This document shows positions 891 through 20,000 of a stretch of DNA of 20,000 nt, one piece after another (the first letter of the stretch is position 1; each line of letters opens with the position of its first letter). The stretch lies in the IMG/VR virus record IMGVR_UViG_3300044998_001320; one strand, 5' to 3'. Both the position numbers and the translations under genes were made by a program. The notes beneath the pieces are model-generated. The model was not told the origin of the DNA, searched no databases, and saw only the letters and a list, made by a program, of their open reading frames with translations. The DNA is from an uncultured virus (IMG/VR IMGVR_UViG_3300044998_001320). Its lineage: Duplodnaviria; Heunggongvirae; Uroviricota; Caudoviricetes.

Positions 891-3800
891 TTAGGAATTT
901 GTTGATGGCGGGGCTTGTGCTTGTAGTGCAGCGATAAAGGATTCCAGTGTAGTGATCCTTTCGGTCAAGCTGTTAACAAGCGCCATTAAGTCAACATCGC
1001 CGATGAAGATTCCTTTGTTGGCTGCTAAGCGAATCGCGCCGTCAGCTACTGTCACCTCGGCATCCCTAGTTTTGCCCTGAGCATCTGCGAAGCTGGATAG
1101 TGACGCCGCCCCTCGGGCTAGTTCAAGTCCAGCGCCGCCCAGTCCTGGTGCACGACCCTCAAGCGATCGCATGGACATTTTGCCCAGGGTATTGAGGACG
1201 CCCCCCGCCTCACCCAACCCTAGTTCACCAAAGGGGGTTTTGATTCCAGCCTTGCCCAGCCCTGCGAACACCCCTGCTCTTCCCAGAGGGCCAATCAGCG
1301 CTCCCGTCGTTTTTTTGATCAGGATCTTGGCCCCGCGTTCCCGCAAGTCGGTCAAGATTTCTGCCGCGTGCTTGCGAACTTCAACGACTGCCCCTTTGTG
1401 CTCAATCGGGAGTCCATTCAGCAGACCGTTGAATTGCCCCAGCATCTTGTTCAGGTCACCGCTCACTAACCCACTGATTGCCCCCATCGCCTTGGGGAGG
1501 AACTCCTGGGCCATAGCGTTAGCTGAAGGCAACTGCCCCGCCCTTAGCCAATCTCCCAGGGGCTTGCCATCGATGACCTGATGAGCTAGGTTTCCCGCTC
1601 CTGAGAATTGTGTTACCTGAGATAAAGCGGCGATCGCCTCAGAAGTTTGCCCTTTGCCGATCGCCCCTATTGCCTGAGTCAGAGGCGAAATCATTCCCAA
1701 GTTGCCTTGGATCCTAGACAAGGTGTCTACGGATTTACTTGACAGGGAGGACATGGCCAACCCCACCAGCCCCTGGAGCTGGTCGTTGATTGGTAGCTGT
1801 CCTGTCGCCGCTGCCAGTAGCTGCTCCGGCTTTAGGTTGTTCTGGATCAAGTCCGGCAATAACTGCTCTAATTGCTTAGCGATCGGGGGTGCGTCGGCGG
1901 GCAAGATGCTGGGGCGATTAGCAGTGATTGGCGATTTCGTCGTCGCCACCGTGCCCTGCCCTGGTTTAATCACCGCCCCCGCGGCCGGGTCGTCCAGTGC
2001 CCGATAGAATGGACTGTTTGGATCAACTGGCGGAGTCGGAATCGCTGATCCTAGCTTGGATCCACCCGCGCGGTAGATTTCCGGGTTGAACTCTGGAGGG
2101 GGTTCAAATTCCGCCAAAATCGCTGCATCTGAGATTGCAGATCCTAAAGACTGAGGCAGATCACTGATCAGGGGCTGTGGCGCACTTCCCGCCCCCTCCC
2201 CAGTTGCCCCAGCCACTTGAAACAACTCAATATCTCCGATCGCGGATCCAACTACCGCGAAATCGTCGGGGGCAAACTCTGATCGCTGCTCCGGTGGGAG
2301 CCGGTCGTATAGGGCCCGCGCCAGTGGAATCTTGACCGTTGCCGGGTCATTCCAGTAAATCCCCTGCTCCCGAGGCCCGGCGTTGGCCGACTCGTAAGAG
2401 TCCAGTCGTTCCTCGCGTGTTGGTGGCGTGATCGGCCCATTGTTGCCGCCTCCCACCAACACCGCGCCGTCAGATCCCGCGCCCGCCAACCCAAGGGCAT
2501 CACCAAGAGATGCAGCCGGAGTAACTGGCGTCGTCCTGATCACCCCAGCCGGATCCACCGCCGTCAGTCCGTTAGCGATCGATTGCTCAAGCCCCGCCAT
2601 GAAATCCGTGGGGGCCTCAGCGGCGGGCAAGATCTCGCGGATCTTCCCTAGGGTCTCACCTAGCCCCAACCCAAACACGTTCTGCACCGCCTCAAATTGA
2701 TCACCCAAAGCCAAGCTGATCAACGACTCGGTTTGACGATCAGGCTGGCGCTGCAGAGCAATCGCCTCCGCAAAAATCCGCTCAGTCACCTCAGGAGTGA
2801 GCTGAGATTTAAGCGACGTCGGGAGCTGCGGCAAGATTTGAGCGACGGCAGTGACGGGGTCGTGGCTCTCAAAAGCTTGACGGGTAAGAGGAATCAGGGA
2901 TTGCACCGGAGCAATCGCATCTAGCTGCGGCCCCAGCAATTGCCCCACCTGAAGCGGGTTAGCACTAGACAACTTGCCGAACACCTCGATCGCCTCAGGC
3001 AGCCCGCCTAACTTGCCCGTCAAGTCCTGAAGTTGGTTGCGTAGCGCCTTGAATCCCTGCTCCACGAAATCACCGGATTCTGGCAACCCAATCCCCTTGG
3101 CAAGTTGATTGAATTTGTCCAAGGCTGGGGCAATCGAGCCGATCAACCCCTTGGCTTTTTGCAGAAGCTGGCTGATTTCATCAAGGGGGCCCTCGATCCG
3201 CCCCACTGCCTCATCAAGCTTCAGCGTGGACTTGGCAGCGCTGGTCAGGTCAATCCGCCCCTTGGGGTCAATTATCTGCTTAGCTCCAGCCTGGTTACCC
3301 TGAGCAACCTCTCCCTCAGGGCTATGGGTTGTGTAACCTTGGGGATTCTGGACGCTGGCCGTGCCATCCTCCCGCAGACTCAAGGTAGCGCTATTGGCAG
3401 TGGTCTGGGTAATATTACCTGCGCCATCAACCAGTTGAGTCACGCCATGGGGATAGGCATCGACACGACTTTGGTTTGCGTCGTTCTTGGCGGTGATCAC
3501 ACCATTGCGCGTGGCACTGCCATAAATTTCGTTCTCCCGATCAAACACCGGGTGAGGAGGCTCTTGGCGATTGACTACGCAGCCCAGCAAGAACAGATTG
3601 TTGATATCACCCAACATCGCCAGGCAGATTACCTGCGCCCCTTTTCTCAGTAATCGGTAGGATCCACCCGTGGTGTTACCCTCGGTAGTCAACTCGATCG
3701 GCCAGGCCCAACCGTCGTTGCTGTTTGGCAACACCTGGTTTTCGCTAAAAAGCTTACTGGTGACGCGGATCCGTCCAAGCTTTTCGGGGTCATCCAAATC

Positions 3801-3902
3801 AACAATCTCACAGGGAATTGCGCCAAAAACAAATCCCTCTTCTAGATGGGTGGCCCTGGCTTCGGGCAGGGTGGGACGGGTGATGCGATCAAAGGAGGAC
3901 AT
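891..3902 (-). CDS. Phage baseplate assembly protein V / gp5-VgrG-like central spike with a large internal insertion
   Basis: N-terminal gp5 OB-fold-like pattern (CEIVDLDDPEKLGRIRV...WAW...GGSYRLLRKGAQV...GDINNLFLLGCV), then Gly/Thr/Asp-rich beta-helix-like repeats and a C-terminal coiled coil. ATG at 3902 preferred over the TTG at 3911 in the ORF track. Confidence 0.75.
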   Translation of the reverse strand: MSSFDRITRPTLPEARATHLEEGFVFGAIPCEIVDLDDPEKLGRIRVTSKLFSENQVLPNSNDGWAWPIELTTEGNTTGGSYRLLRKGAQVICLAMLGDINNLFLLGCVVNRQEPPHPVFDRENEIYGSATRNGVITAKNDANQSRVDAYPHGVTQLVDGAGNITQTTANSATLSLREDGTASVQNPQGYTTHSPEGEVAQGNQAGAKQIIDPKGRIDLTSAAKSTLKLDEAVGRIEGPLDEISQLLQKAKGLIGSIAPALDKFNQLAKGIGLPESGDFVEQGFKALRNQLQDLTGKLGGLPEAIEVFGKLSSANPLQVGQLLGPQLDAIAPVQSLIPLTRQAFESHDPVTAVAQILPQLPTSLKSQLTPEVTERIFAEAIALQRQPDRQTESLISLALGDQFEAVQNVFGLGLGETLGKIREILPAAEAPTDFMAGLEQSIANGLTAVDPAGVIRTTPVTPAASLGDALGLAGAGSDGAVLVGGGNNGPITPPTREERLDSYESANAGPREQGIYWNDPATVKIPLARALYDRLPPEQRSEFAPDDFAVVGSAIGDIELFQVAGATGEGAGSAPQPLISDLPQSLGSAISDAAILAEFEPPPEFNPEIYRAGGSKLGSAIPTPPVDPNSPFYRALDDPAAGAVIKPGQGTVATTKSPITANRPSILPADAPPIAKQLEQLLPDLIQNNLKPEQLLAAATGQLPINDQLQGLVGLAMSSLSSKSVDTLSRIQGNLGMISPLTQAIGAIGKGQTSEAIAALSQVTQFSGAGNLAHQVIDGKPLGDWLRAGQLPSANAMAQEFLPKAMGAISGLVSGDLNKMLGQFNGLLNGLPIEHKGAVVEVRKHAAEILTDLRERGAKILIKKTTGALIGPLGRAGVFAGLGKAGIKTPFGELGLGEAGGVLNTLGKMSMRSLEGRAPGLGGAGLELARGAASLSSFADAQGKTRDAEVTVADGAIRLAANKGIFIGDVDLMALVNSLTERITTLESFIAALQAQAPPSTNS

Positions 3903-3970
3903 AAAAAACAAGCACGACTAGCCAGTGCCTAGCCGCGCTAACGGGGTTGAAACGGTTGCTGTTCTTTTAA

Positions 3971-4568: not shown

Positions 4569-4886
4569 ATGAAAGATAAGCTAAGCCTATACAAAAGTCA
4601 CCGTCGGCGATTCAGCGCCGCTCCCGCCCCTGATCCAGTTGGCGGTTTTTTCTCTTGGCTGCTGGGAGATCCCTGTTTTCTGGAGAACTACACAAAAGAC
4701 CTAATCGAGCGTCATCTTGGCAGCCTGTGCGATGTAAGTCCTCGCACGATTAGGCGCTGGGGGTCTCGGTTCGAGAAAATCCCCCCTCATTACGCACGGC
4801 TGCTTCATCTTCATCGACGCTGTCTGGAATTGGAGTTAAGGTGTGCTGCTTTGCAACGGCAATCCACCGCTCAACGAGCTAGTTGA
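4569..4886 (+). CDS. Helix-turn-helix (Cro/XRE-like) DNA-binding protein
   Basis: LGSLCDVSPRTIRRW...KIPPHYARLL is an HTH-type signature; short C-terminal coiled coil. Stop overlaps the start of the next gene. Confidence 0.65.
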   Translation: MKDKLSLYKSHRRRFSAAPAPDPVGGFFSWLLGDPCFLENYTKDLIERHLGSLCDVSPRTIRRWGSRFEKIPPHYARLLHLHRRCLELELRCAALQRQSTAQRAS

Positions 4887-5929
4887 CTATGAATGGCTCC
4901 GCTGACGTAATCGCCCAGGCTTTGAAGAGCGGGGTTACCCCCGAGGAGATTCGCCGCGCTGCCAATGGCAACCCTGAGTTGTTGACGGCCCTGCAGGTGC
5001 AGGTTGATCGACTCCGGCTAGAGTCGGTTGGGGAATGCAACCCGATCGCTCAGCTAGCCCGGTCTCCCGGGCACACCCTATTTGCCTCAAAAACCGGAGC
5101 AGGCAAGACCTCCTTTCTGCAAGCCTTGATTGCAGATGCTTGCCTTTATTTCCCAGAATGCGCTTGGTCGATTGTCACACCGAAGAACGACAATTTTTTT
5201 GGCTGGCCGACGATCCAAGGGCAGCGCGTCGTTACCTATCTCGACTTGCCGGAATCCCCCAGCGACACGACCTGGGTGGATGTATTGCACCGAGAAGTGA
5301 GCCGAGTTTACCGAGTCTTTGTCCGGCGTAATCGTTTTGACAAGTCGGCGATCCGGGCGGGAGGACAGCCCTCGGACTGGCCCCCTGTATTCCTGGTGAT
5401 CGACGAATACTTTGCTCTCTATTCCTTGCTGAAACGACTGCCCAAAATTGAGCAAGAACAGGATGATGGCAAGGGAGGGTTAAAGCGAGTCAAAGTTCCC
5501 GATGAGCGCGGCGGAGAGATCACCCAGATGTTGCAATACATCGTGCTCATGGGGCGATCTCTCGGGGTTTATCTGATCCTTTCAGGGCAGTCCGCTAATT
5601 GTGAAGAAATTGGGTTCAGTAGTGACGGGCGCCGTAACTTCCGAATTGTGGCCTTGGGAAAACGGCAAACTCACACGGGGACTCCCGTTGGCTACGAATG
5701 CTTGTTTGGAGCCCTGAACAATTCTTTCTTGTTTGCAGATCGGGAGCAGGTTGCACAAATCAAGCGCCAAATCAAGTTTGTGATTGCCCAAGCTCAAGCG
5801 ATGGGCGATCTCCCGGTAGCCCTGATCAATGGGGGGCAAACCCGGTTGTGGATCGTCCCTGATCTGCGAGAAATCGCTCGCGCCCCCATCCCGTTGCCGA
5901 AATCGGTGGAGATGGCTCGTGTTCAGTAA
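4883..5929 (+). CDS. FtsK/HerA-superfamily P-loop ATPase (TraB/coupling-protein-like), no TM anchor
   Basis: Walker A ASKTGAGKT, Walker B FLVIDE, and the GRSLGVYLILSGQ motif (Arg finger plus conserved Gln) typical of FtsK/HerA pumps. Confidence 0.85.
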   Translation: MTMNGSADVIAQALKSGVTPEEIRRAANGNPELLTALQVQVDRLRLESVGECNPIAQLARSPGHTLFASKTGAGKTSFLQALIADACLYFPECAWSIVTPKNDNFFGWPTIQGQRVVTYLDLPESPSDTTWVDVLHREVSRVYRVFVRRNRFDKSAIRAGGQPSDWPPVFLVIDEYFALYSLLKRLPKIEQEQDDGKGGLKRVKVPDERGGEITQMLQYIVLMGRSLGVYLILSGQSANCEEIGFSSDGRRNFRIVALGKRQTHTGTPVGYECLFGALNNSFLFADREQVAQIKRQIKFVIAQAQAMGDLPVALINGGQTRLWIVPDLREIARAPIPLPKSVEMARVQ

Positions 5930-5950
5930 TTCCCTCACCCCAACGAAACC

Positions 5951-6520
5951 ATGTCTGTCTCACAAGACGGCGATCGCCATGACCGACTGATCTACCTGAC
6001 CGCCCCAATTGCCCCTGCCATCTGCGGGGGCTTGGCTTGGTGGGGCAACGCCGAACCCCAAGCGATCGTTGCAATCGGAATCAGCGCGATCACAGCGCAC
6101 CTGTTTGGCGGACTGTACTTGAGTCCTGATCTTGACTTAGCCGGGACGATCCGCTGCAAGTCCTGGTGGCGCTGGGAACATTCTGCCAAGCTGGGCTGGG
6201 TCTGGATGCACTATCCCCGCTTGGTGGGCTGTCATCGATCGCGCTGGTCTCACGCCCCCCTACTGGGCAGCGCCACCCGCCTGCTCTACCTGATGGCGAT
6301 TCTCCCCTTTCTGCTCCCGGTCTTTGTTCGGCGTTGGCGCAGATTGATCGCTGTGATTGCCCTAGTCAGCGTTGCCCTTAGCTATACCCCGTGGTGGTCT
6401 TTGTTGGCAGCGTTGGTCGTCGGCATCGAGACCAGCGCGATCGCCCACTACACCCAAGATGGTACTGTACTTGGCGGATGGCATCGTCCCCGCCGCTCAA
6501 AACCTAGACGCAAGCCTTAA
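5951..6520 (+). CDS. DUF2227-like putative metal-binding membrane protein
   Basis: Motifs HDR, LSPDLD, SWWRW...LGWVW, HRSRWSHAPLLGS, RLLYL and a C-terminal HxxxD, with several hydrophobic helices. Confidence 0.8.
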   Translation: MSVSQDGDRHDRLIYLTAPIAPAICGGLAWWGNAEPQAIVAIGISAITAHLFGGLYLSPDLDLAGTIRCKSWWRWEHSAKLGWVWMHYPRLVGCHRSRWSHAPLLGSATRLLYLMAILPFLLPVFVRRWRRLIAVIALVSVALSYTPWWSLLAALVVGIETSAIAHYTQDGTVLGGWHRPRRSKPRRKP

Positions 6521-6538
6521 CTCCCACGCTATCAACCC

Positions 6539-6580
6539 AAAGCCCTGTCATTGATGTTTTCGATGACAGGGCTTTTGTTT
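6539..6580 (+). terminator. Intrinsic terminator
   Basis: 16-bp stem AAAGCCCTGTCATTGA / TCGATGACAGGGCTTT (one G-U pair), 5-nt loop, followed by TGTTT. Confidence 0.8.
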
Positions 6581-6630
6581 CGGACAAATTGACCTAAAGA
6601 TTTGCGCTTGAATCGACAAAATGCGAACGT

Positions 6631-6697
6631 AGGAAACACCAAGGAAACACCAAAGAAACACCACCAGCTAAGCACAGGATGTTTCCTTGGTGTTTCC
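6631..6697. repeat. Three tandem 11-bp repeats plus a perfect 18-bp inverted copy; putative protein-binding site
   Basis: AGGAAACACCA (6631), AGGAAACACCA (6642), AAGAAACACCA (6653). 6680-6697 TGTTTCCTTGGTGTTTCC is the exact reverse complement of 6632-6649. Confidence 0.85.
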
Positions 6698-6757
6698 CCT
6701 TAGCACAAGAGGAGCGGCCAAATTGTCCAAACGACTTCACTGAACGTGGCGGGCGTC

Positions 6758-7111
6758 ATGCCCGTTGCATACCTCAACCCTGAACGTGTGCGTAACCGAT
6801 ACAAGAACCCCAAGACCGGGCGAACCATAAGCCGCAAAACCTTTGCCCGTTGGCGGCACATCCTCTGCATCCCGGTCGCCAGTCAAGGTAGTAACCAATA
6901 CAGCGACACCAGCGCCTGGGTTTCAACCGAAAACGTCTTCCTGTTGGACGCTTGGTACTACCTGGTTATTAGCCCCCACGGGCCTGGCATGAACCGAACC
7001 GAATTCGTTGATCGTTTCTGGGAGTGGGACGACACCGATCGCACCCCCCAAGAGCGAATCGCAGACTATCTGACCGAGCACAAACTCACAATTCCCGACC
7101 TATGCGCCTGA
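6758..7111 (+). CDS. Putative MerR/Xis-like HTH DNA-binding protein
   Basis: ISRKTFARWRHILCI resembles a MerR/excisionase recognition helix. First gene after the repeat site. ATG at 6758 (ORF track uses GTG at 6746). Confidence 0.5.
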   Translation: MPVAYLNPERVRNRYKNPKTGRTISRKTFARWRHILCIPVASQGSNQYSDTSAWVSTENVFLLDAWYYLVISPHGPGMNRTEFVDRFWEWDDTDRTPQERIADYLTEHKLTIPDLCA

Positions 7112-7683
7112 ACCAAGTTGCTAGCCAGTTAAAAATTGCGCCCGCCAAGATCCAAGAGGCGATTGCCGCCCTCCATCAACGCAGGCACCCAGCATTTCCC
7201 AGTTCCACCGTCGCCGACCTTAGTGAGGTGCAAGTCGAGGCGATCGCTCAGTATCTTCGCAACCCTCAACAAGAGCAAAGTACCGGTGCGCAACCCGGCT
7301 CAGCCCACGACGTTGGCGGGGCCTTTGGGGTGATCAGTCAGCAGTTCAATGAGGCCGCCGCTACCGCCGGTGTGCAAATCGCCCGTGAAGCCGTTCGGAC
7401 TGCCCAAGCTACAGCCACTCACCTATTGGTCAACTACTCGCCCGATGAAATCGATGATCTAGCCCTTCGTCAACTGGGGCTAGGCGCGATCGAAGACAAC
7501 GGAGCCAGTCAAGGGATGGCTAGCGTTTTGTCCAGCCTGGGAAAGCCGCGGAGGGCGATGCTCGACTTCACCCCCAATCACAGCAATCCAATCCTGTCGC
7601 TAGCAGGGGTTTGTCCGCCAACCCAGCAAGCCTTGTCCGCCAGCAGCGACAACGCTACTGTCGAAGCTGGCTCGGATTCCTAG
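7102..7683 (+). CDS. Hypothetical protein with N-terminal IF2N/HTH-like motif; contains a -1 slippery site
   Basis: ATG at 7102 overlaps the upstream stop. MRLNQVASQLKIAPAKIQEAI resembles an IF2-N/HTH pattern. G GGA AAG at 7539-7545. Confidence 0.65.
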   Translation: MRLNQVASQLKIAPAKIQEAIAALHQRRHPAFPSSTVADLSEVQVEAIAQYLRNPQQEQSTGAQPGSAHDVGGAFGVISQQFNEAAATAGVQIAREAVRTAQATATHLLVNYSPDEIDDLALRQLGLGAIEDNGASQGMASVLSSLGKPRRAMLDFTPNHSNPILSLAGVCPPTQQALSASSDNATVEAGSDS

Positions 7684-8015
7684 CGGCGATCGCCCTAGTC
7701 AGCGGGGTAGGCAGCTGGCTGCTTCGCCTACCCCCCACCACGATCCTGGTCGCCCTGACGGCCGGGGCGGTGGGACGCGAAATCGCCGACGGCAATCTTC
7801 CTGTGTTGCGTGTCGACCTCTCAGAGCCGGAGGTGGTTGATGCCGTAGTCGAGTCCTCTGAATCACCTTCGGGCATTCCCGCGATCAAGGCAGGACAAGC
7901 AGAACCCTCGTTGCTAGATCTCAGCACGATCGCCGCCTGGCTGCCCTCCAATAACCCCGGAAGGTCTTCCCTGGCTTCACCTCCGCCCAATCCCTTTGGT
8001 GAATACAGTGACTAA
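7545..8015 (+). CDS. Membrane-anchor ORF, probably expressed as a -1 frameshift extension of the 7102 gene (track start TTG 7611)
   Basis: Frame open 7524-8015 with no ATG. Two hydrophobic segments (WLGFLAAIALVSGVGSWLL; TILVALTAGAVG). Lies in the -1 frame relative to the GGGAAAG site. Confidence 0.6.
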   Translation, partial: AAEGDARLHPQSQQSNPVASRGLSANPASLVRQQRQRYCRSWLGFLAAIALVSGVGSWLLRLPPTTILVALTAGAVGREIADGNLPVLRVDLSEPEVVDAVVESSESPSGIPAIKAGQAEPSLLDLSTIAAWLPSNNPGRSSLASPPPNPFGEYSD

Positions 8016-8415
8016 ATTCAAAAAACTCCCTCACCCCTGGAAAGCCGCAGTCAGCACCTTTGCTGCCATCTTGATTGCCACCCCCTTCGTTAGCACAGCC
8101 GGAATCTTTGCCTGGATCATTCAAGGCTCCATAACTCGGATCGCTGATTGTGTCAAGACCGAGACCCGCGAAACTTGTGAAGTCTTGAATCGCTGGGATT
8201 CCGTTAGCTTTGCCAACTTGATCGCTTACACCTTTGGTGGCGGGGTCTACGCGGGATTGATTTTGGGCGTGATCAGTGGAAGCCTTTCGTTCCGCGCCGC
8301 CCAGCCCCGCATATTCCGGCAGGTTTCACTCGCCACCCAGCAGCGCTTGCAACGCGCAATCGAAGAAGGAGGACTAAACCTTGAAGATATCTTAGAAAGT
8401 GCAGGGTATAAGTGA
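7996..8415 (+). CDS. Hypothetical membrane protein (2 TM)
   Basis: Two long hydrophobic helices flanking a Cys-Cys loop. Overlaps both neighbours; start may be GTG at 8008. Confidence 0.7.
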   Translation: MVNTVTKFKKLPHPWKAAVSTFAAILIATPFVSTAGIFAWIIQGSITRIADCVKTETRETCEVLNRWDSVSFANLIAYTFGGGVYAGLILGVISGSLSFRAAQPRIFRQVSLATQQRLQRAIEEGGLNLEDILESAGYK

Positions 8416-9248
8416 TGACGAGAACCTCATCCCCCACGACCGGCCGAGCGGTCAAGCATCCCACCCCATCCCTACTTAAGCAAAATCAACCTAGTTGGAC
8501 CCTCCAGAAGATCTGGCACAAGTATCCCGTTGCGGTCGTCCTGTCCGCGATCCTTGTGCCGGGCTGCGCGATCAGCCTCTGGCTTGGGCGTCCCCAGTCC
8601 CAGCAGGTGGAGGTCACGGCGGTCAACCATGGTGAAGTCCCTCCCGCCCCCACCAACCCAGTGGAGGACTCCCGGGTGATCGCCCAGCAGCTGCGTGCCC
8701 AGTACGAGCAGACGATGCGGACAATGCACGCTCGCCTTCAGTCCGATATCGGCAACGCGATCGCCCAACGAGCCAACGATTACTTTGAATACGCAAGGTC
8801 TGTCGAACAGGCTGATCGCCGCAAGGCTCAACAGGAAAACCGTAACCCATCCTTTGATGGGACGGCTGGGGTGTTGACCCACCTCCTAGAGGTCAAGCGG
8901 CAGGAGTTGATTGTTGCACGGCAAGCACAAAAACCCGAGGAGGTAAACAAGATACTTCTTGAAACCTACGCCTGCATGGTGGCCCTGGAGGCGGCGTTCA
9001 ACCCTGCCAGTGTCAAGCCTTTCCAAATTCAAACCACGGTTGACATCTCCGATCCGACTCGGCGGTTCTCAGCAATCATTACAGCCCAAGCGGTGCAGGG
9101 GCTTGTGAACGACGTGCGAGCAAGCGGCGAGTCGGCTAAACAGGCCTATGAAGCGGCAATCGCTGCCCAACAGAAGGCTAGTCAGCAATCCCACGTGTCA
9201 CCCCCTACTGCCCAACCCGTGTCTTTTGAGAGCGGAGGTATGCCATGA
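8412..9248 (+). CDS. Single-TM protein with long helical/coiled-coil region
   Basis: TM YPVAVVLSAILVPGCAISLWL followed by Q/A/E-rich helices. GTGA and ATGA overlaps with neighbours. Confidence 0.75.
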   Translation: MMTRTSSPTTGRAVKHPTPSLLKQNQPSWTLQKIWHKYPVAVVLSAILVPGCAISLWLGRPQSQQVEVTAVNHGEVPPAPTNPVEDSRVIAQQLRAQYEQTMRTMHARLQSDIGNAIAQRANDYFEYARSVEQADRRKAQQENRNPSFDGTAGVLTHLLEVKRQELIVARQAQKPEEVNKILLETYACMVALEAAFNPASVKPFQIQTTVDISDPTRRFSAIITAQAVQGLVNDVRASGESAKQAYEAAIAAQQKASQQSHVSPPTAQPVSFESGGMP

Positions 9249-9844
9249 AATTTCGCCCTGTTCACTTGCTGGCACTGCCGGTCATGGCCATGGCCCCCCT
9301 CCAGTTTGCGGCCAGTCGTTACCAGCCTACCAAGTGTGGAGCAGAAGCCAACCCCGTTTTCATCAACCAAGGGGGGCGACAGTATGAGGTTACGCGGGTG
9401 ATCGATGTGCCGCAACCTAACCCCCTCGCCCTGTGGCACTGGCTGTCTGGGTTTGCCTCCCTGGTAGCTCCGCCGATCGTGGTGGCCCTGAACGCAATGC
9501 CTGGGATGCGTAGCGGAAACAACGATAGTCGCGAGGAGGATCGCTCTTTTGCCACCTCAGTCATTGGACAAGGTTTGGATCCTTTCGTAGTCGACAGCGA
9601 TGACGAGGAAGAGGAGGCATCGGATCCCCTGCAGGCTGACGATCTTGACGACTTCCCGATCACATCTCCCTCTTCGGCTGTCGTGACCACCTCAGATCCG
9701 AGCACTGCTGATTGGATGTCGGCGATCATTGCTGTTGCCCAACGTCGGGCTGCATCACCTCCCGCCTCGATTGCCTCAGATAATCAGGACGATCCTCTGG
9801 ACGACCTTGATCTTGACCTTGACCTTGCTAAACCCCTCTCATGA
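9245..9844 (+). CDS. Membrane protein with very acidic C-terminal tail
   Basis: Signal-like N-terminus, second hydrophobic helix, D/E-rich tail (DSDDEEEE, DDPLDDLDLDLDL). ATGA overlaps; GGAGG RBS upstream. Confidence 0.7.
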   Translation: MKFRPVHLLALPVMAMAPLQFAASRYQPTKCGAEANPVFINQGGRQYEVTRVIDVPQPNPLALWHWLSGFASLVAPPIVVALNAMPGMRSGNNDSREEDRSFATSVIGQGLDPFVVDSDDEEEEASDPLQADDLDDFPITSPSSAVVTTSDPSTADWMSAIIAVAQRRAASPPASIASDNQDDPLDDLDLDLDLAKPLS

Positions 9845-10323
9845 GCGACGACGACTTTCACTCCCCCCGGAGTCCTAAATCTATGAGCAGCAGTCCACAT
9901 GACAAGTCTCGATCATTCGTTGAGGCAATCGAACGAGGGCATCGACTCACCTACCGCGACCTGATTGGACTTCCCGTGACCTTGAGCGCGCAAACCTGGG
10001 CCATCCATTGGCCTCGATGCATCGCGTGGATAGGCGTGATTGCAACCAGTGGCTCATTGTTTTCCATGTGCACCGCGTCAATCACAGGGCAGGCAATTCA
10101 ACCAAGCGGCGTGCATGACTTTATCAACCCCGTGGTCTGGACAAGCGGGGTGGGGGCCGGGATTAACGTGGGGGTTCGTGGATTCAACCAAACCATCGTA
10201 ACCCCTACCAACAATGCACTGAGATCAGGGGAGGGTATTAACTGGGCACAGCCTCAGACGGGCCGCGACTCTACTCTAGTCGTGCCACCCGCCCCCAATC
10301 GGTCTGTTGCACCCGTCCCCTAA
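9841..10323 (+). CDS. Hypothetical membrane protein
   Basis: Hydrophobic segment CIAWIGVIATSGSLFSMC; ATGA overlap with the upstream gene. Confidence 0.65.
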   Translation: MSDDDFHSPRSPKSMSSSPHDKSRSFVEAIERGHRLTYRDLIGLPVTLSAQTWAIHWPRCIAWIGVIATSGSLFSMCTASITGQAIQPSGVHDFINPVVWTSGVGAGINVGVRGFNQTIVTPTNNALRSGEGINWAQPQTGRDSTLVVPPAPNRSVAPVP

Positions 10324-10325
10324 CC

Positions 10326-10919
10326 ATGATTGGATTACCACCGATTACAAAGACAGTCCTGACGTTGGGGCTGGTTGTTTGGGCAATCGGGTCGGTTAAA
10401 AGCGGCGATCCGCGCACCCCCGATCTTGTCTTTGTTGGATCCTTGGCTAAGCAAGGAGCTGTAGCTTCAGTCAACGCCGCCCAGAAAGCCTGGAAGCTGG
10501 TTCCCACAACCAACCCAGCAACCGCCCAGCAATCAGCCCCTCAAGACCCCCAGCCCCGATCGTCAGCCACCAATTTTTTTCGTCAGCCGACTGTGACTGA
10601 ACCGGCCCGGCTCATACCACCATCACTAGTCCAGTCGCTGGGATGCAACGACATGCCTGGGGAGGCTGTTCCCTTGAATCAACAGACCCTGGTTGCCTGG
10701 TTAACCCGAGCAGGGGGGTATCCTCGTGCATCCTTGGCAGCCCTGTATGAACCACTCCCCGGACTGTCTACACCTCCTGTCTGTCTCAACGCTGATCGCA
10801 CCCGCGCCATCTGGCTTGTCACCTTTGGAGGCGGGCAGTACCAGAAACTCGTGGCCCATTTTGACCCCAATCAAAACTACCTGCGCCACGACCCGCTTCA
10901 ACCCGTAACCTTTCCCTAG
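10326..10919 (+). CDS. N-terminally anchored hypothetical protein
   Basis: TM VLTLGLVVWAIG, a P/Q/T-rich linker, and a small C-terminal domain with two Cys. Starts 2 nt after the previous stop. Confidence 0.7.
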   Translation: MIGLPPITKTVLTLGLVVWAIGSVKSGDPRTPDLVFVGSLAKQGAVASVNAAQKAWKLVPTTNPATAQQSAPQDPQPRSSATNFFRQPTVTEPARLIPPSLVQSLGCNDMPGEAVPLNQQTLVAWLTRAGGYPRASLAALYEPLPGLSTPPVCLNADRTRAIWLVTFGGGQYQKLVAHFDPNQNYLRHDPLQPVTFP

Positions 10920-10932
10920 ATTTGGTCAATCT

Positions 10933-11436
10933 ATGAAATCGTTACTCACCACCCTGTTGATTACTGGTGGAGTAATTTGGGCTGCCTTTTGGCTCATGAA
11001 CAGCCCTCTCACTTACACCGTCGACCGACAACTACCCAGCCGGGTCTCCCTCGAAGCAATCCAATCTCCCGAGGGCGTCGCCCCTAATAATCTACCTACC
11101 GTGATCGCCGAACGAGTCCTGAACGTCGAAGTTGTACCGGGACGCAGCCTTAGCGAGGGAGTCCTCTTGAAGGGGGAGCAGTCCGTAATCTACTACGCCC
11201 CCTTCGATGGCTCGATTACCGCAATCCCTAGGGGCATTCGTTACGAATCCCCTGAGTTATTTGGCTCGATTGAACTCATCTATGGAAACGTCTTAGCCGC
11301 GCCGGGGCCGATTCAATCGCGCATGTCCCTAGCCGCAGGGCAATCGGTTCAGGCGATTCGACTTGACTCAAATGGGCAGCCGATTCCTCTTGAGCGACCG
11401 CTGCTGGAGGCTTTGCAGACAGGAGTGGCCCCATGA
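10933..11436 (+). CDS. Membrane-anchored protein, possibly a degenerate M23/hybrid-motif fold
   Basis: N-terminal TM; YAPFDGSI resembles the 'YAPxDGxV' segment of M23/duplicated-hybrid folds. No histidines, so the M23 Zn ligands are absent. Confidence 0.55.
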   Translation: MKSLLTTLLITGGVIWAAFWLMNSPLTYTVDRQLPSRVSLEAIQSPEGVAPNNLPTVIAERVLNVEVVPGRSLSEGVLLKGEQSVIYYAPFDGSITAIPRGIRYESPELFGSIELIYGNVLAAPGPIQSRMSLAAGQSVQAIRLDSNGQPIPLERPLLEALQTGVAP

Positions 11437-12221
11437 AGTTCTTTGACGACTTGATAATCGCGTCCTGTGTTGTCTCTGTTGCGACCCTATGGGTCACGAG
11501 CCGCACCCCGCGCATCGCCACCGCGCCGACCCAAGCTGCCACCGCGCCGATCACTGCGCATCGCCTTGACCTTGACCCCACCATTGACCGGTGGTTTGCT
11601 TCCCCCAACTCGATCGGTGCGGTGGCGATCGGAATGGCTGAGGGTAACTACTGGCTGCAGATCGCCTCCAGCCCAACGGGACAGAGGGTGGTCGTCAAAA
11701 CAACCCGACTCTACGCAGGGCATGTGGATCCAGGCAACTTTGTGCAGAACTACGGTTTCTGTTCTGATCAAGGGCGATCGGGTGGAGACCTACCCAAGGC
11801 TGACCAGGGTTGCCTTGAACGGATACGCAGTAAGATCCCTGAGGCGATCGCTGATCTCAGATCCGCCGGGATTGACCCCATAGCAGATCCCGAGGCTCTT
11901 TTCAACACCCTAGACCTCCACAATCAGGGCAGCCCCATCCACTCGCGGTGGTTTCCCAGATCCCTCGCCAAAGCAAGAGCGGCGAGGAATCAAGGAATTG
12001 AAACAATCGCCCACGCCCGTACCGCCGCCTTCTACCAAAACGGAGATCCCACCACTGGACATAACCTGGCCATCGGACTACTGGGTATTTGCCGCCGAGA
12101 AAATCGTAGGGTTAGCGACTTTGCCTGCGTCTACGGCGATCAACTTCGACGAGCTAGGGAGATCAGCAAAGCGATCAGGATCTTCGGTCAAGCAGGTACA
12201 ACAGAGGGAGAGCGCGAATGA
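11433..12221 (+). CDS. Putative lysozyme-like muramidase with N-terminal anchor
   Basis: TM, then AIGMAEGN...YAGHVDPGN...NYG (Glu after helix, then Y-x-x-H-x-D-P-G, reminiscent of lysozyme-type active sites), DLHNQ and DQLRR motifs. Function inferred. Confidence 0.5.
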   Translation: MKFFDDLIIASCVVSVATLWVTSRTPRIATAPTQAATAPITAHRLDLDPTIDRWFASPNSIGAVAIGMAEGNYWLQIASSPTGQRVVVKTTRLYAGHVDPGNFVQNYGFCSDQGRSGGDLPKADQGCLERIRSKIPEAIADLRSAGIDPIADPEALFNTLDLHNQGSPIHSRWFPRSLAKARAARNQGIETIAHARTAAFYQNGDPTTGHNLAIGLLGICRRENRRVSDFACVYGDQLRRAREISKAIRIFGQAGTTEGERE

Positions 12222-12967
12222 GTCGCAGTATCGCCATTGACTGGGCGAGTGTCGTCGTTGTCGCAGCGGTGGCTGCAGCGATCGGGATAATAAGCGCGCC
12301 CAGTGGGTCTCCCCTCTTCTCGTTAGGAACCCCCGCGGCCACAGCCCAGCCCAGTGACGACCAGAGCAGCCCCCTTGGGCGACGGGTGATAGCCGCCATG
12401 AAGTCACGGGGCTACGAAATCGACCCCGTTTTCAATATCGTCGCCATCTCTGGGATGAACCCTGATGGTACACGCAACGATAACCACCCTGACCAGTGGA
12501 ATGACCTCGTGCTAATTGTCAAGCCCGACGGCACAGTATTGCACATTGCGCAAGCAACGACCGAGCCAGCCTGGGGAATCACGCAGAAGCCGATCGTCCC
12601 ACCCGGTGCTGCCCAGCTTGCCTTTGGACAGCACCCCAGGGCTTACCAAATTGGAATTCACCAAGGATCCAGTCATCACGAAGCGCTCGTGCAAACCGGA
12701 GGCCCCGTGACGATCCTACGCGACGTGAATCGCAATGGACGACGCGATGCTGACGATCTGAGGGTTTCGGGTTTCTTTGGAATCAACTGGCATCGAGCAA
12801 CGACCACCCCCCTGAAAACGATCCAGGGCTATTCAGCAGGCTGCATCGTCACCAACGACATCACCAAACACTTGTCCTTTATGCGGATCCTCAAGACCCA
12901 TCCTGGCTACCAACGTGATCGCCTGTTTCGGTTCACGGTGACGCTCTTGAACGGCGCGGATACCTAG
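12218..12967 (+). CDS. Putative L,D-transpeptidase-like (YkuD-related) peptidoglycan enzyme / endolysin-like protein with N-terminal anchor
   Basis: FGINWH...SAGC catalytic His/Cys motif, plus WND, ATTEP, GAAQLAFGQ, ALVQ, RDVNRNG. Hydrophobic N-terminus. Confidence 0.7.
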   Translation: MSRSIAIDWASVVVVAAVAAAIGIISAPSGSPLFSLGTPAATAQPSDDQSSPLGRRVIAAMKSRGYEIDPVFNIVAISGMNPDGTRNDNHPDQWNDLVLIVKPDGTVLHIAQATTEPAWGITQKPIVPPGAAQLAFGQHPRAYQIGIHQGSSHHEALVQTGGPVTILRDVNRNGRRDADDLRVSGFFGINWHRATTTPLKTIQGYSAGCIVTNDITKHLSFMRILKTHPGYQRDRLFRFTVTLLNGADT

Positions 12968-19302: not shown

Positions 19303-20000
19303 CTAGTAGAGTTCAGGCGTCAAGCAACGATCAGAATCGCAAGCGGCCGGCCCTTGCTCAGATGCTTGGGGTTGACTCAAGACGTCCCGATCATGTCGAG
19401 CCAGGTGATCATGGAACGAACCCGGTTTACGGCGATCACGCACCGCCGCCGCCAACCGGTCATAGGTCTCGCGGGAAATCGGCTCAAAGGGCAGCCGAGG
19501 ATAGGTCTCCAAGTTGTCGAACCGGGCCAACAGCGCCACCGAAATATACCCCTCGTCGTTCTGAATCGCCTGGTAGATCCGCTGGCCCAGGGGTTCAATT
19601 TCTGACTCCCGTAGCTCGATCGTGGCGCTGGTGTTGTGGGTGGTGTAGTGGGTTTGCACCTGCATGTAGAAGTCAAACTGAGCGAGGGCGCTGAACCGCT
19701 CGATCGCGATCGTGTCCGCCCCCGGCAAGTCCGCCCAAGGCACTGCCACCGGAATCTCCACCAGCCACTCGGTACAGCGCGGGTCAAACGGATCGTCCAA
19801 CAAGCGGCCGTCTTCGTCCTTGTCTGACTGGGATGGCACAACGCTATAGCCATAGTCTAAACAAGCCAGGGCCACCGGGTCGTTCTTTGCAAAGGTGATG
19901 CGCCGGATGAACCGAGCCGCCTTGGGCGGATGCCAGCCGGGCGAGGCCCCCGTCAGCAGACTCTTGGTTCCACTGGGCTGAACTGTGGTGCAGCGGTTGG
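19303..20000 (-). CDS. nrdJ: Class II (adenosylcobalamin-dependent) ribonucleoside-triphosphate reductase, C-terminal part (5' end outside window)
   Basis: Frame open to the window edge: NRCTTVQPSGTKSLLTGASPGWHPPK...FIRRITF...HNTSATIE...PRLPFEPI...GPAACDSDRC (C-terminal redox Cys pair), the cyanobacterial NrdJ pattern. Confidence 0.93.
   Translation of the reverse strand, partial: NRCTTVQPSGTKSLLTGASPGWHPPKAARFIRRITFAKNDPVALACLDYGYSVVPSQSDKDEDGRLLDDPFDPRCTEWLVEIPVAVPWADLPGADTIAIERFSALAQFDFYMQVQTHYTTHNTSATIELRESEIEPLGQRIYQAIQNDEGYISVALLARFDNLETYPRLPFEPISRETYDRLAAAVRDRRKPGSFHDHLARHDRDVLSQPQASEQGPAACDSDRCLTPELY

Follow-up and report, generated by a model that had tools for sequence, protein, structure and literature searches.

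Comparison with described systems

The TraB/Spd system of Streptomyces pumps double-stranded DNA between cells, and the initial annotation took it as the model for a gene run in an uncultured virus (IMG/VR IMGVR_UViG_3300044998_001320). A second point of comparison is the isolated cyanophage PaV-LD, whose ORF129L-122L encode a protein with two transmembrane (TM) segments (129L), an anchored protein (128L), an 'FtsK/SpoIIIE' protein with two N-terminal TM segments (127L), the products of 126L-124L, an anchored M23 peptidase (123L) and an 'endolysin' (122L). No other endolysin or peptidase is annotated among the 142 features of PaV-LD. In the report on this phage (PMC9096620), the equivalent of the hydrolase end described here is the published lysis pair, and expression of ORF123 and ORF124 caused growth inhibition and membrane damage that depended on the TM region. 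That an anchored peptidase is toxic when over-expressed is not, however, a feature specific to lysis.

The region analysed here (4569-12967) lies within a window of 20,000 nucleotides, the whole stretch of DNA under study. Tailed cyanophages (PaV-LD, the IMG/VR contigs L052 and the L005 group) share its layout of membrane proteins, FtsK-like ATPase and tethered wall hydrolases, which is not unique to this window; the best reading is that of a local, rearranged copy of this recurring module. We tentatively interpret it as an envelope cassette of the lysis type that lies next to a DNA pump docked at the membrane, with no role assigned to the pump (probability about 0.45).

The element is virus-like and comes from a hot-spring cyanobacterium. 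Its cyanobacterial origin is supported by the HIP1 motif GCGATCGC, found 14 times against 0.5 expected and at uniform density across the window. The description 'phage-like' depends, within the window, on a borderline Phage_base_V match (23.9 bits against a cut-off of 23.8; a gp5/VgrG-type OB domain) together with genes for a Dda-like helicase, an SNF2 helicase and RNR.

Gene organization and transcription units

The open reading frames previously listed were found at their given coordinates, those of the region all on the + strand. The 25 natural variants listed in 4569-12967 (from 40 of 259 variant rows) gave 26 codon readings, one being counted twice since it lies inside two overlapping ORFs; 16 were synonymous and 10 non-synonymous. 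In the same 40 rows, all four indels of at least 6 bases were in frame. These variants indicate that the ORFs are likely to be real genes.

The start/stop overlaps reported earlier at 8412 (GTGA) and at 9245, 9841, 11433 and 12218 (ATGA) are real, and with TTGA at 4883 the region has six overlaps of four bases. The TTGA joins the ATPase start to the stop of a small upstream gene (4569..4886, 105 aa), which carries an in-frame 21-base insertion in strain variants and possibly encodes a MerR-type HTH protein (Pfam E 0.0069, below the cut-off). The coupled run does not, however, form one unit with the ATPase. An intrinsic-terminator-like hairpin followed by a T-run (6540..6580, + strand; a 15-bp hairpin, inverted repeat I1) ends the ATPase/DUF2227 unit, with a folding energy of -26.9 kcal/mol (z -6.65) that none of 200 shuffled sequences equalled. 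The region is therefore made up of two transcription units, unit 1 (4569-6520) and unit 2 (6746-12967). Between them, after the terminator, stand three tandem 11-bp repeats (AGGAAACACCA) with an 18-nt inverted copy (6631..6697), predicted to be probably a regulator binding array; in L005, the corresponding operon is likewise preceded by a similar array of three 11-bp repeats. The operon break is shown by the sequence, while the timing of expression of the two units is something we infer.

The FtsK-type ATPase

The gene at 4883..5929 encodes a soluble, single-domain P-loop ATPase of 348 aa with Walker A (GAGKT) and Walker B (VIDE) motifs. It was first described as an FtsK/HerA ATPase with no TM anchor, and this held, the highest 19-residue Kyte-Doolittle mean (1.43) falling within the core. 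The match to Pfam FtsK_SpoIIIE was weak (E 8.5e-4; 19.3 bits, under the 24-bit cut-off), and that to the 'FtsK/SpoIIIE-like' family phrog_1358 reached E 1e-5. The fold of the AF2 model (pLDDT 91.4) is of the FtsK/TcpA/HerA type. The conjugation coupling protein TcpA gave the top Z score (16.1), followed by HerA (15.7), FtsK (15.1) and EssC (14.7), such that the protein is by fold no nearer to conjugation ATPases than to HerA, FtsK or EssC (Z within about 1.5).

The top Foldseek match was EccC (E 3e-7), which together with the EssC score would fit a minimal EssC/EccC-like motor exporting wall hydrolases or other signal-less proteins through a channel of small membrane proteins. Two proteins, the PaV-LD ORF122L 'endolysin' and an M23+SLT protein of L005, have no predicted anchor and would for that reason need an export route. 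Against this, EssC and EccC have three ATPase domains where this protein has one, none of the ORFs matched a WXG100-type family, both hydrolases of the window carry N-terminal anchors of their own and DNA pumps match its fold at least as well. Such an export function appears quite improbable.

The FtsK/HerA fold is also that of packaging motors of membrane-containing (PRD1/STIV-like) viruses; were the ATPase such a motor, the membrane proteins would be components of the virion membrane. Small membrane proteins are likewise numerous in tectiviruses, which have anchored wall enzymes too. STIV B204, however, scored Z 12.4-12.8, about 3 units below TcpA, HerA and FtsK. Relatives of the ATPase co-occur with terminase and tail or baseplate genes; L005 (phrog_2, 6.6e-28) and PaV-LD (ORF053L) encode their own terminase, and the ATPase is thus not the packaging motor in those phages. 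With a gp5/VgrG-type OB domain in the window and no double-jelly-roll capsid gene seen there, a packaging role is disfavoured to the point of being extremely improbable.

Hydrophobic segments were found in 37 of 73 relatives of the ATPase, mostly paired at the N-terminus as they are in TraB and TcpA. The protein of the window differs from these in lacking the pair, and also lacks a C-terminal extension carried by several relatives, which could be a DNA-recognition tail. These features bear on the earlier proposal that the ATPase, small membrane proteins and tethered wall enzymes form one envelope-crossing pump moving double-stranded DNA into a neighbouring cell, enabling spread with no virion. 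Transfer was envisaged either within a filament or from cell to cell on contact. The analogy with TraB and Spd stands for the FtsK-clade ATPase, the coupled small membrane proteins, the wall enzymes and the absence of any recognised relaxase or VirB4. In agreement with the initial annotation, searches of Pfam, PHROGs and NCBIfam gave no match to a relaxase, VirB4 or pilin for any of the 23 ORFs; for relaxase and VirB4 this is as expected of a TraB-type system. The analogy is weakened by the missing anchor and tail, and by the membrane proteins, none of which matched an Spd or T4SS family. The terminator separating the ATPase from the membrane run also counts against a single pump, as does a fold that fails to separate TcpA from HerA, FtsK and EssC.

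Membrane proteins and wall enzymes

The protein encoded at 5951..6520 (189 aa, about four hydrophobic segments) was correctly described as DUF2227-like, matching DUF2227 (PF09988) at E 1.4e-19, and by its adjacency is a candidate membrane partner of the ATPase. Since the ATPase is without the two N-terminal TM helices of many relatives, a docking partner is proposed: unit 1 comprises a possibly MerR-like protein, the soluble ATPase and the four-segment DUF2227 protein, and the ATPase would work as a ring pump at the cytoplasmic membrane, with DUF2227 or some other membrane protein as its dock.

Unit 2 opens with two genes for soluble proteins, of 121 aa (6746..7111) and of 219 aa (GTG start at 7024) or 193 aa (ATG start at 7102) ending at 7683, where two of the three listed variants in the frame 7024..7683 were synonymous. 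Both had been called HTH-like, a label not borne out in Pfam, PHROGs or NCBIfam, where neither matched any family; the HTH signal is restricted to the weak MerR match upstream of the ATPase.

The set of about seven anchored proteins and two anchored wall enzymes noted at first was recovered as nine consecutive proteins (7611-12967) with hydrophobic anchors. All nine have a 19-residue Kyte-Doolittle mean of at least 1.52, with seven reaching at least 1.67; among the other 14 ORFs scored, 1.52 was reached only by the DUF2227 protein (1.95) and a 1006-aa protein (1.93), in which the stretch sits within its OB domain. The run begins with a 134-aa protein with one anchor (7611..8015) and a 139-aa protein with two hydrophobic segments (7996..8415), which is holin/pinholin-like in architecture only and matched no family in Pfam or PHROGs. 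It is followed by a 278-aa protein (8412..9248) that combines an N-proximal anchor with a long helical ectodomain, spanin-like in the same architectural sense. This architecture is shared with genes upstream of the ATPase in L005 and L052 and with PaV-LD ORF128L; the protein has only three relatives (99, 56 and 52 % identity) and no match in an atlas search. The remaining small proteins are of 199 aa (9245..9844; signal-like N-terminus, one hydrophobic segment, acidic tail), 160 aa (9841..10323; a weaker segment of 1.54, and four of four listed variants synonymous), 197 aa (10326..10919; weak N-terminal anchor, 1.52) and 167 aa (10933..11436; N-terminal anchor). None of the small membrane proteins of the run matched a family in Pfam, PHROGs or NCBIfam.

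The two wall enzymes close the unit. The first (11433..12221) has an N-terminal anchor, a lysozyme-like fold in its AF2 model (pLDDT 89.6) and an invariant Glu70 after the first helix. Nearly all of its best 50 fold matches were lysozymes, lytic transglycosylases and chitosanases, with Z of 7.3 or less (PHAb11 7.3, P22 lysozyme 7.2, chitosanase 7.1, MltE 6.4, VgrG3-C 5.9). It has 41 homologs, mostly cyanobacterial and including fusions to M23 or M15, and its domain occurs at 16 IMG/VR loci. The second (12218..12967), also with an N-terminal anchor, matched phrog_3000 (3.4e-32) and the 'endolysin' family phrog_33083 (3e-24); His148, His192 and Ser-Ala-Gly-Cys209 are invariant in alignment A6, and the domain was found in 27 phage records by tblastn. 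The first is most likely a lysozyme-like glycosidase and the second a Cys/His peptidase-type domain, both predicted.

Unit 2 would most likely be the phage's envelope-breaching, lysis-type cassette, with the holin-like, spanin-like and further anchored proteins acting beside two signal-anchored enzymes that would cut peptidoglycan from the periplasmic side. The equivalence with the PaV-LD pair (PMC9096620) favours this over DNA spread. On the other hand, nine anchored proteins far exceed the need of a lysis cassette, and for five of them no part in lysis can be assigned. On cyanobacterial chromosomes (twice in G145, once in G317), homologs of the two wall enzymes are grouped with anchored proteins and with a TM-anchored P-loop ATPase that differs from the one described here, groupings which suggest an ATP-driven envelope machine and argue against lysis.

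Distribution in cyanophages, plasmids and other elements

In L052 the ATPase follows a 213-aa anchored protein and is itself followed by an 87-aa TM protein, a 157-aa protein, an anchored M23 protein and a domain like that of 11433; a helicase gene and genes for Baseplate_J, Tail_P2_I and Mu Gp36 flank this set. The L005 group has the layout in three diverged versions (ATPase identity 55-65 %). What is conserved as a unit is the layout of functional classes and not, outside close copies, the homologous genes: beyond close copies of the element, relatives were detectable for the ATPase and for the two wall enzymes alone. The linkage of ATPase and hydrolase nevertheless persists across very divergent phages (23-31 % identity), and lysis does not explain it. 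Its retention in PaV-LD, L052, the L005 group and the window would also suit spread, although the carriers, as complete tailed phages, already have a way out of the cell.

Alternatively, the region might be an accessory module expressed from a resident element, serving superinfection exclusion or defence, or helping an episomal prophage to segregate when the septum closes, a role of the kind proposed for FtsK/SpoIIIE genes of Bacillus phages. Phage accessory genes of this type are linked to segregation into spores (PMC8597652). Genes for ParA, ParB-like and DnaN proteins are present in the L005 group, a HEPN/nucleotidyltransferase pair adjoins the ATPase of L007, HerA-type ATPases of several defence systems are among the fold matches and the even HIP1 density fits long residence in the host. 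The window itself, however, has no partition or integrase gene, the sole PADLOC match in 4569-12967 was to the P-loop stretch of mad8 (E 2e-6) and the wall enzymes are left unexplained, making this role improbable.

The ATPase has a family member of 31 % identity whose relatives are found on 23 named plasmids, all from filamentous cyanobacteria (Nostoc 18, Leptolyngbya 2, Tolypothrix 2, Oscillatoria 1; raw genus counts that do not factor in the genus make-up of the collection), some being annotated as 'conjugative DNA-transfer family protein'. On Nostoc pNSMS105 the ATPase lies behind a run of tiny ORFs, and the plasmid is typed non-mobilizable, meaning that no relaxase was recognised. The 10,548-bp element L001, which is probably circular, encodes an integrase, an HTH protein, two TM proteins, the ATPase and a primase-helicase, and has no room for virion genes. 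These carriers fit virion-free spread, but the host of the present element may be unicellular, and for this locus we regard such spread as doubtful. The plasmid and L001 relatives have membrane partners and no recognised hydrolase or virion genes, and so the core role of the ATPase family cannot be lysis. In the cassette-and-pump reading that we prefer, the pump would handle the element's own DNA at the membrane, as suggested by its conserved linkage to the cassette and by the relatives found on plasmids and in an integrase/primase element.

Gene organization and transcription units

The region from 4569 to 12967 contains 16 tightly packed ORFs, all on the plus strand. The most economical reading of it, to which we would give a probability of roughly 0.45, is that of a lysis-type envelope cassette (6746–12967) lying beside a membrane-docked FtsK-like pump (4569–6520). 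Four-base start/stop overlaps were confirmed at six junctions (TTGA at 4883, GTGA at 8412, and ATGA at 9245, 9841, 11433, and 12218). The initial annotation had grouped the ATPase and the membrane proteins in one candidate module; they fall into two units, split after the DUF2227 gene by a perfect hairpin of 15 bp with a T-run behind it (6540–6580; −26.9 kcal/mol, z −6.65). The first unit comprises a gene for a 105-aa protein, the ATPase (4883–5929), and the DUF2227 gene (5951–6520), and the second encodes two soluble proteins followed by nine membrane-anchored proteins, the last two of which are wall enzymes (11433–12221 and 12218–12967). About 110 bp past the first unit, in a promoter-like position, there are three tandem repeats of 11 bp, together with an inverted copy of 18 nt (6631–6697). 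As the terminator-like hairpin is followed by these repeats and then by a second gene run, the ATPase appears to be transcriptionally apart from the membrane run here. Three tandem 11-bp repeats also lie just upstream of the ATPase operon on the IMG/VR contig L005 (7739–7774), with the same period and position as those at 6631–6663 of the window.

The ORFs of this region behave like real genes in nature. Contigs carrying it at no more than 0.5% divergence were found in other mat metagenomes, and the 25 variants listed for it gave 26 codon readings, as one of the variants falls where two ORFs overlap; 16 of the readings are synonymous and 10 are not, with third codon positions predominating. 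Each of the four listed indels of at least 6 bases (21, 15, 6, and 18 bases) preserves the reading frame; these counts are of 40 of the 259 variant rows. Two in-frame insertions distinguish strain variants: one of 21 bases, which duplicates local sequence, close to the beginning of the gene for the 105-aa protein (4571–4589), and one of 15 bases close to the end of 12218–12967. The mat contigs supported no joint beyond a 21–25-letter side and are uninformative on excision or circular forms.

Pfam matches at E ≤ 0.01 were obtained for two of the 13 ORFs between 4883 and 12967, namely the ATPase and the DUF2227 protein, and for no other. The convincing PHROGs matches were restricted to the ATPase (phrog_1358 'FtsK/SpoIIIE-like', 1e-5) and the product of 12218–12967, while across 4569–12967 NCBIfam gave a single weak row (E 0.0073, for the 105-aa protein) and PADLOC only a mad8 match to the ATPase, confined to the P-loop. 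The DNA from 4883 to 12800 had no match when searched against phages, and PDB sequence searches with five single window proteins and the profile A4 returned no credible match. As previously noted, no relaxase or VirB4-type ATPase was recognized among the 23 window ORFs using Pfam, PHROGs, and NCBIfam (20 kb of a 76.6-kb contig). The sole TraA_Ti match (E 9.5e-4) was traced to the common helicase C-terminus of a Dda-like helicase.

The HIP1 palindrome GCGATCGC is enriched in cyanobacteria; it occurs 14 times against 0.5 expected, distributed across the entire window. The source runs of this DNA are hot-spring and microbial-mat metagenomes.

The FtsK/HerA-fold ATPase

The product of 4883–5929 is a 348-aa, single-domain protein with Walker A (GAGKT) and Walker B (VIDE) motifs. 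It possesses no hydrophobic anchor, in agreement with the initial annotation, and ends directly after the ATPase domain. A structural model built from 50 relatives (pLDDT 91.4) found its best Foldseek matches in EccC, FtsK, and TcpA (E 3e-7 to 5e-6), and re-scoring with VIA-align gave Z values of 16.1 for TcpA, 15.7 for HerA, 15.1 for FtsK, and 14.7 for EssC, with lower scores for the STIV B204 packaging ATPase (12.8) and TrwB (11.9). Based on these matches, the modeled protein is a ring ATPase that belongs to the FtsK/HerA superfamily and is of the FtsK/TcpA/HerA kind, the fold leaving the exact kind undecided. The FtsK_SpoIIIE domain (PF01580) scored 19.3 bits, under the curated cut-off of 24.

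Two of the minor alternatives for this protein bear on these comparisons. Packaging would place it with the viral packaging branch, the grouping that the initial annotation had named as speaking against its own proposal, and that branch gave a lower fold score than TcpA, HerA, FtsK, and EssC. Protein export is suggested by the likeness to EssC and EccC, which differ in having three tandem ATPase domains against one here; no WXG-type family was matched among the window ORFs in Pfam.

The family of this ATPase is small and rare. A word-indexed search recovered four proteins at E ≤ 1e-3 and an exhaustive search 72, 16 of them at ≤ 1e-10, and members were present in two of 401 sampled cyanobacterial genomes. 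The window ATPase had no tblastn match at 1e-5 among phages and plasmids, and none in a search of viral contigs. Among 50 aligned relatives, 19 matched FtsK_SpoIIIE (E ≤ 0.001) and eight DUF87/HerA. Hydrophobic segments, mostly paired near the N-terminus, were found in 37 of 73 relatives, and several have a C-terminal extension of approximately 50–100 residues that the window ATPase lacks.

The membrane run and its wall enzymes

The prediction of consecutive anchored proteins was borne out, with nine of them in 7611–12967, each having a hydrophobic 19-mer of mean at least 1.52 (at least 1.67 in seven); among the other 14 scored ORFs, 1.52 was reached only by the DUF2227 protein and a 1006-aa protein. 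None of the nine matched any family in Pfam or NCBIfam, and in PHROGs only the product of 12218–12967 was matched, to phrog_3000 (3.4e-32) and phrog_33083 'endolysin' (3e-24), neither of which is an Spd family. The two soluble proteins heading the run had been called HTH-like, for which no family match was found. The product of 8412–9248, an anchor with a long helical part, gave no usable match in ESM Atlas and has three relatives, at 99, 56, and 52% identity. In related elements the ATPase and the 11433–12221 enzyme are 70–72% identical to those of the window, and the membrane run thus evolves fast, given how few and diverged the relatives of 8412–9248 are by comparison.

In the family of the 11433–12221 protein, 41 proteins were detected, most of them from cyanobacteria (Lyngbya, Spirulina, Coleofasciculaceae, Xenococcaceae). 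The family is present in 22 of 401 sampled cyanobacterial genomes and 16 IMG/VR loci; a search of the window protein against phages gave no match. Two members are fused to Peptidase_M23 and one chromosomal homolog to Peptidase_M15. Foldseek against the PDB returned nothing at E ≤ 0.001 for its model (pLDDT 89.6), and in a fold search independent of Foldseek the top 50 were nearly all lysozymes, lytic transglycosylases, chitosanases, and T4-lysozyme fusions (PHAb11 Z 7.3, P22 lysozyme 7.2, chitosanase 7.1, MltE 6.4, VgrG3-C 5.9). With Z values that are modest and a match list that is one-sided, the model points to a lysozyme-like fold. An invariant Glu70 lies directly after the first helix and before a beta-hairpin, the place of the catalytic acid in lysozymes. 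ESM Atlas gave a VgrG3-C lead for the domain (score 0.90), and the VgrG3-C entries 4nso and 4noo appeared in the fold search at Z 5.9 and 5.3, respectively; PF21277 was matched by none of the 41 family members.

The domain of the 12218–12967 protein is found in 27 phage records, among them those of crAss-like, Bacteroides, Pseudoalteromonas, and Leptospira phages. His148, His192, and the Ser-Ala-Gly-Cys209 motif are invariant in four cyanobacterial copies, a pattern with a candidate likeness to the His/Cys site of L,D-transpeptidase-type enzymes. The N-terminal anchors of both wall enzymes are rich in Ala, Gly, and Val. Both proteins can be regarded as peptidoglycan hydrolases, the second by its phrog_33083 endolysin match and the first by its lysozyme-like fold and M23/M15-fused homologs.

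Lysis genes are required by tailed phages. Judged by architecture, the two anchored hydrolases, the 2-TM protein (7996–8415), and the anchored helical protein (8412–9248) would fit a scheme of holin, signal-anchored endolysins, and spanin; for the 2-TM and helical proteins this fit is by architecture alone, with no family match. Ala/Gly/Val-rich hydrolase anchors, tight gene coupling, a small protein with two TM segments, and a helical periplasmic protein with an anchor are all features of the pinholin/SAR-endolysin/spanin cassettes of Gram-negative phages. The window differs from these in having far more genes and a neighboring conserved FtsK-like ATPase, and a lipoprotein outer-membrane spanin was not recognized in it. 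Nine anchored proteins are, to our knowledge, more than in any known lysis cassette.

Homologs of both wall enzymes are also found adjacent to one another in the chromosomes of two cyanobacterial genomes, twice in G145 within a duplicated stretch of approximately 9 kb (loci L044, 2279–11732, and L045, 2124–11983) and once in G317 (L048, 7200–16400), where one of them is fused to Peptidase_M15. Each cluster also encodes anchored proteins and a different TM-anchored P-loop ATPase; these ATPases (P0117, P0118) matched no known family and showed no detectable relation to the window ATPase beyond the P-loop. By their sequences, the clusters are a parallel module with a non-homologous ATPase, and the occurrence of wall-enzyme homologs beside a different ATPase in a chromosome is not explained by lysis.

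Conservation of the layout in other cyanophages

The initial annotation had expected the module to be conserved as a unit. On comparison of the sequences it is conserved as a layout, which recurs, and not as a homologous gene set: in tblastn and phmmer searches of all 23 window proteins against the ATPase-bearing loci, nothing except the ATPase matched. The IMG/VR contig L052 (65.7 kb; 23 HIP1 sites within 20.6 kb) encodes in one run a 213-aa anchored protein, an ATPase of the FtsK/HerA type, a TM protein of 87 aa, a protein of 157 aa, an M23 peptidase with an anchor, and a domain like that of 11433–12221. This run is flanked by helicase, resolvase, and dCTP deaminase genes on one side and by Tail_P2_I, Baseplate_J, and Mu Gp36 genes on the other, comparable to the flanks in the window, where a gp5/VgrG-type OB-domain protein stands opposite a Dda-like helicase, an SNF2 helicase, and a class II ribonucleotide reductase.

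A second group of IMG/VR contigs (L005/L066, L065, L067, and L068), with ATPases 55–65% identical between versions, encodes throughout a protein of 136 aa, a helical protein with an anchor, an ATPase bearing two TM helices at its N-terminus, a TM protein of 171 aa, a hydrolase of the M23+SLT type, DnaN, and a ParB-like protein, to which L005 adds ParA and a large terminase (loci L065–L071 were annotated by BLAST against previously annotated proteins). Exclusion or segregation is, like packaging and export, a minor alternative for the ATPase. In two further loci (L007, 3251–8818; L012, 28–3327), another ATPase subfamily is preceded by an HTH-like protein and by a second P-loop protein whose TM helices are C-terminal, with DUF2157 and/or YdjM membrane proteins next and, in L007, an upstream HEPN/nucleotidyltransferase pair. 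A relationship between YdjM and DUF2227 was not found (hhalign probability 0.2%), and the idea of a recurring pairing of the ATPase with a YdjM-type protein was therefore dropped.

The layout extends to PaV-LD (NC_016564), an isolated tailed phage of Planktothrix. ORF129L to ORF122L of this phage encode a 2-TM protein, an anchored 269-aa protein, 'FtsK/SpoIIIE' (ORF127L, whose TM helices lie at 13 and 62), three proteins of small size, an M23 peptidase with an anchor, and an 'endolysin'. On one strand, the functional classes follow one another as in the window (anchored or TM proteins, FtsK/SpoIIIE-type ATPase, small or TM proteins, anchored wall peptidase, second wall enzyme), and PaV-LD is a tailed phage with a terminase of its own and a cyanobacterial host. 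The link to the window ATPase is through intermediates only: the L005 ATPase matches ORF127L at E 1.5e-9 and the M23 proteins match ORF123L, whereas the window ATPase reached E 0.029 against ORF127L by phmmer and the window proteins gave no tblastn match to PaV-LD at E < 0.01. PaV-LD differs further in the two N-terminal TM helices of its ATPase, absent from that of the window, in having about five anchored proteins against nine, and in its hydrolase families (M23 and 'endolysin' against lysozyme-like and Cys/His), while the terminator split and DUF2227 belong to the window. As PaV-LD has its own terminase, portal, major head, and tape-measure genes, its FtsK-like gene is not a packaging motor, and with a large terminase in L005 and a terminase and portal in PaV-LD, the ATPase is not the sole candidate motor in either relative.

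Among the 142 annotated features of PaV-LD, ORF122L and ORF123L are the sole endolysin and peptidase. According to the accessible portions of PMC9096620, expression of ORF123 (an M23 endopeptidase with an anchor) and ORF124 ('holin') in E. coli and Synechocystis inhibits growth and causes membrane damage, the two acting jointly, and these effects require their TM regions; the same portions contain no mention of ORF122, ORF125, ORF127, 'lysis cassette', or 'spanin'. Our literature search found no function assignment for the PaV-LD FtsK-like gene or for DUF2227. What lysis does not explain is that the ATPase is kept beside hydrolases across phages whose ATPases are 23–31% identical, or that its family is also carried by elements that do not lyse their host.

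Plasmid relatives and the possibility of DNA transfer

The L068 ATPase, a family member of 31% identity, matched 168 plasmid records (raw counts), of which 139 were from Enterococcus, 18 from Nostoc, two each from Leptolyngbya and Tolypothrix, and one from Oscillatoria, some being annotated as a conjugative DNA-transfer family protein. In the Nostoc plasmid pNSMS105, typed as non-mobilizable, the ATPase is preceded by ten tiny ORFs, and the window ATPase matches it weakly (E 1.7e-5 by tblastn, 8.4e-8 by phmmer). A further relative is found on L001, a complete contig of 10,548 bp from Oscillatoria sp. PCC 10802, which encodes an integrase, a MerR/excisionase-like protein, two TM proteins, an ATPase with a C-terminal extension, and a primase-helicase, leaving no space for virion genes. 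L001 is probably circular, since the primase-helicase ORF (1388 aa) runs in frame across the contig ends.

These relatives, together with the conserved linkage, are better accounted for by spread of the TraB/Spd kind than by lysis. On our analysis it is nevertheless rather unlikely that a relaxase-free device, common to cyanobacterial tailed phages, plasmids, and small integrating elements, passes double-stranded DNA to a neighboring cell without a virion. The parts of such a device would be a pump of the FtsK/TcpA kind, small partners in the membrane, and tethered enzymes that cut the wall, and it would move the dsDNA of the element directly into the neighbor, for example across filament septa, as a cyanobacterial counterpart of Streptomyces TraB/Spd spread. 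The window would then hold a variant whose pump relies on DUF2227 after the loss of its own anchor.

Like the Streptomyces system, the window combines a single FtsK-clade ATPase with translationally coupled small membrane proteins on a mobile element; relaxase and VirB4, which that system does not need, are not recognized here. Two N-terminal TM helices and a C-terminal extension, as in TraB, are present in relatives of the window ATPase; from the window ATPase itself both of these defining appendages are missing, and with them the C-terminal DNA-recognition winged helix of Streptomyces TraB. Neither Spd nor TraB families were matched in sequence by the window proteins, and the carriers differ in being tailed phages. 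The candidate in the window for the Streptomyces clt, a cis array of short repeats recognized by the ATPase, is the array of three 11-bp repeats at 6631–6697. TcpA of the Clostridium perfringens plasmid pCW3 (PDB 6o1w–6o1z), the best structural match (rmsd 3.4 Å, 225 residues aligned), is also a single ATPase domain working with wall hydrolases and small membrane proteins; sequence identity to the window ATPase is 14–15%, its Z is tied with those of HerA and FtsK within about 1, and no counterpart of the VirB4-type ATPase and the relaxase that it works with was seen in the window.

According to the available excerpts of PMC3548315, TraB homologs are found only in Actinobacteria and TcpA homologs are reported only in Firmicutes. 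MPF_C, the cyanobacterial T4SS class, is VirB4-based and unstudied, so that a relaxase-free cyanobacterial system would be new. Accessory FtsK/SpoIIIE genes of phages are themselves already known (PMC8597652, in the part available). If pump and wall-cutting proteins do act jointly to move DNA, conjugation-like transfer would gain a third kind, one outside Actinobacteria and Firmicutes, and phages of filamentous cyanobacteria a cell-to-cell route, with a bearing on phage bloom control and on gene flow in microbial mats. If the region is only a lysis cassette with an accessory ATPase, it would define the lysis genes for a cyanophage group that is little known, along with two uncharacterized families of wall enzymes, one with a lysozyme-like fold and one with a Cys/His domain that also occurs in crAss-like phages. 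The question is testable, as the ATPase linkage is conserved in PaV-LD, which can be cultured.

Other features of the window

The 1006-aa protein (891–3911, minus strand) has a borderline gp5/VgrG-type OB domain at residues 33–111 and a long Ala/Gly/Leu-rich remainder, and found no match among 50,697 phage records; by its sequence it may be a contractile-tail hub or spike. Within an 890-bp non-coding stretch, positions 1–400 contain at least four copies of a palindromic site of approximately 21 bp (TAAATGTTCATCTCGCATTTA), two of them identical, along with related half-sites, in what looks like an operator or iteron array. In the mat contigs this segment is covered approximately 1.7 times as deeply as the remainder of the window. 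At the other end (19303–19998, minus strand), a monomeric class II ribonucleotide reductase (TIGR02505, 1.5e-74) is represented by its C-terminal 231 aa. In mat runs the depth over this stretch rises to as much as five times the level elsewhere in the window, and a gene approximately 95% identical to it is therefore carried by an organism of higher abundance, perhaps the host.
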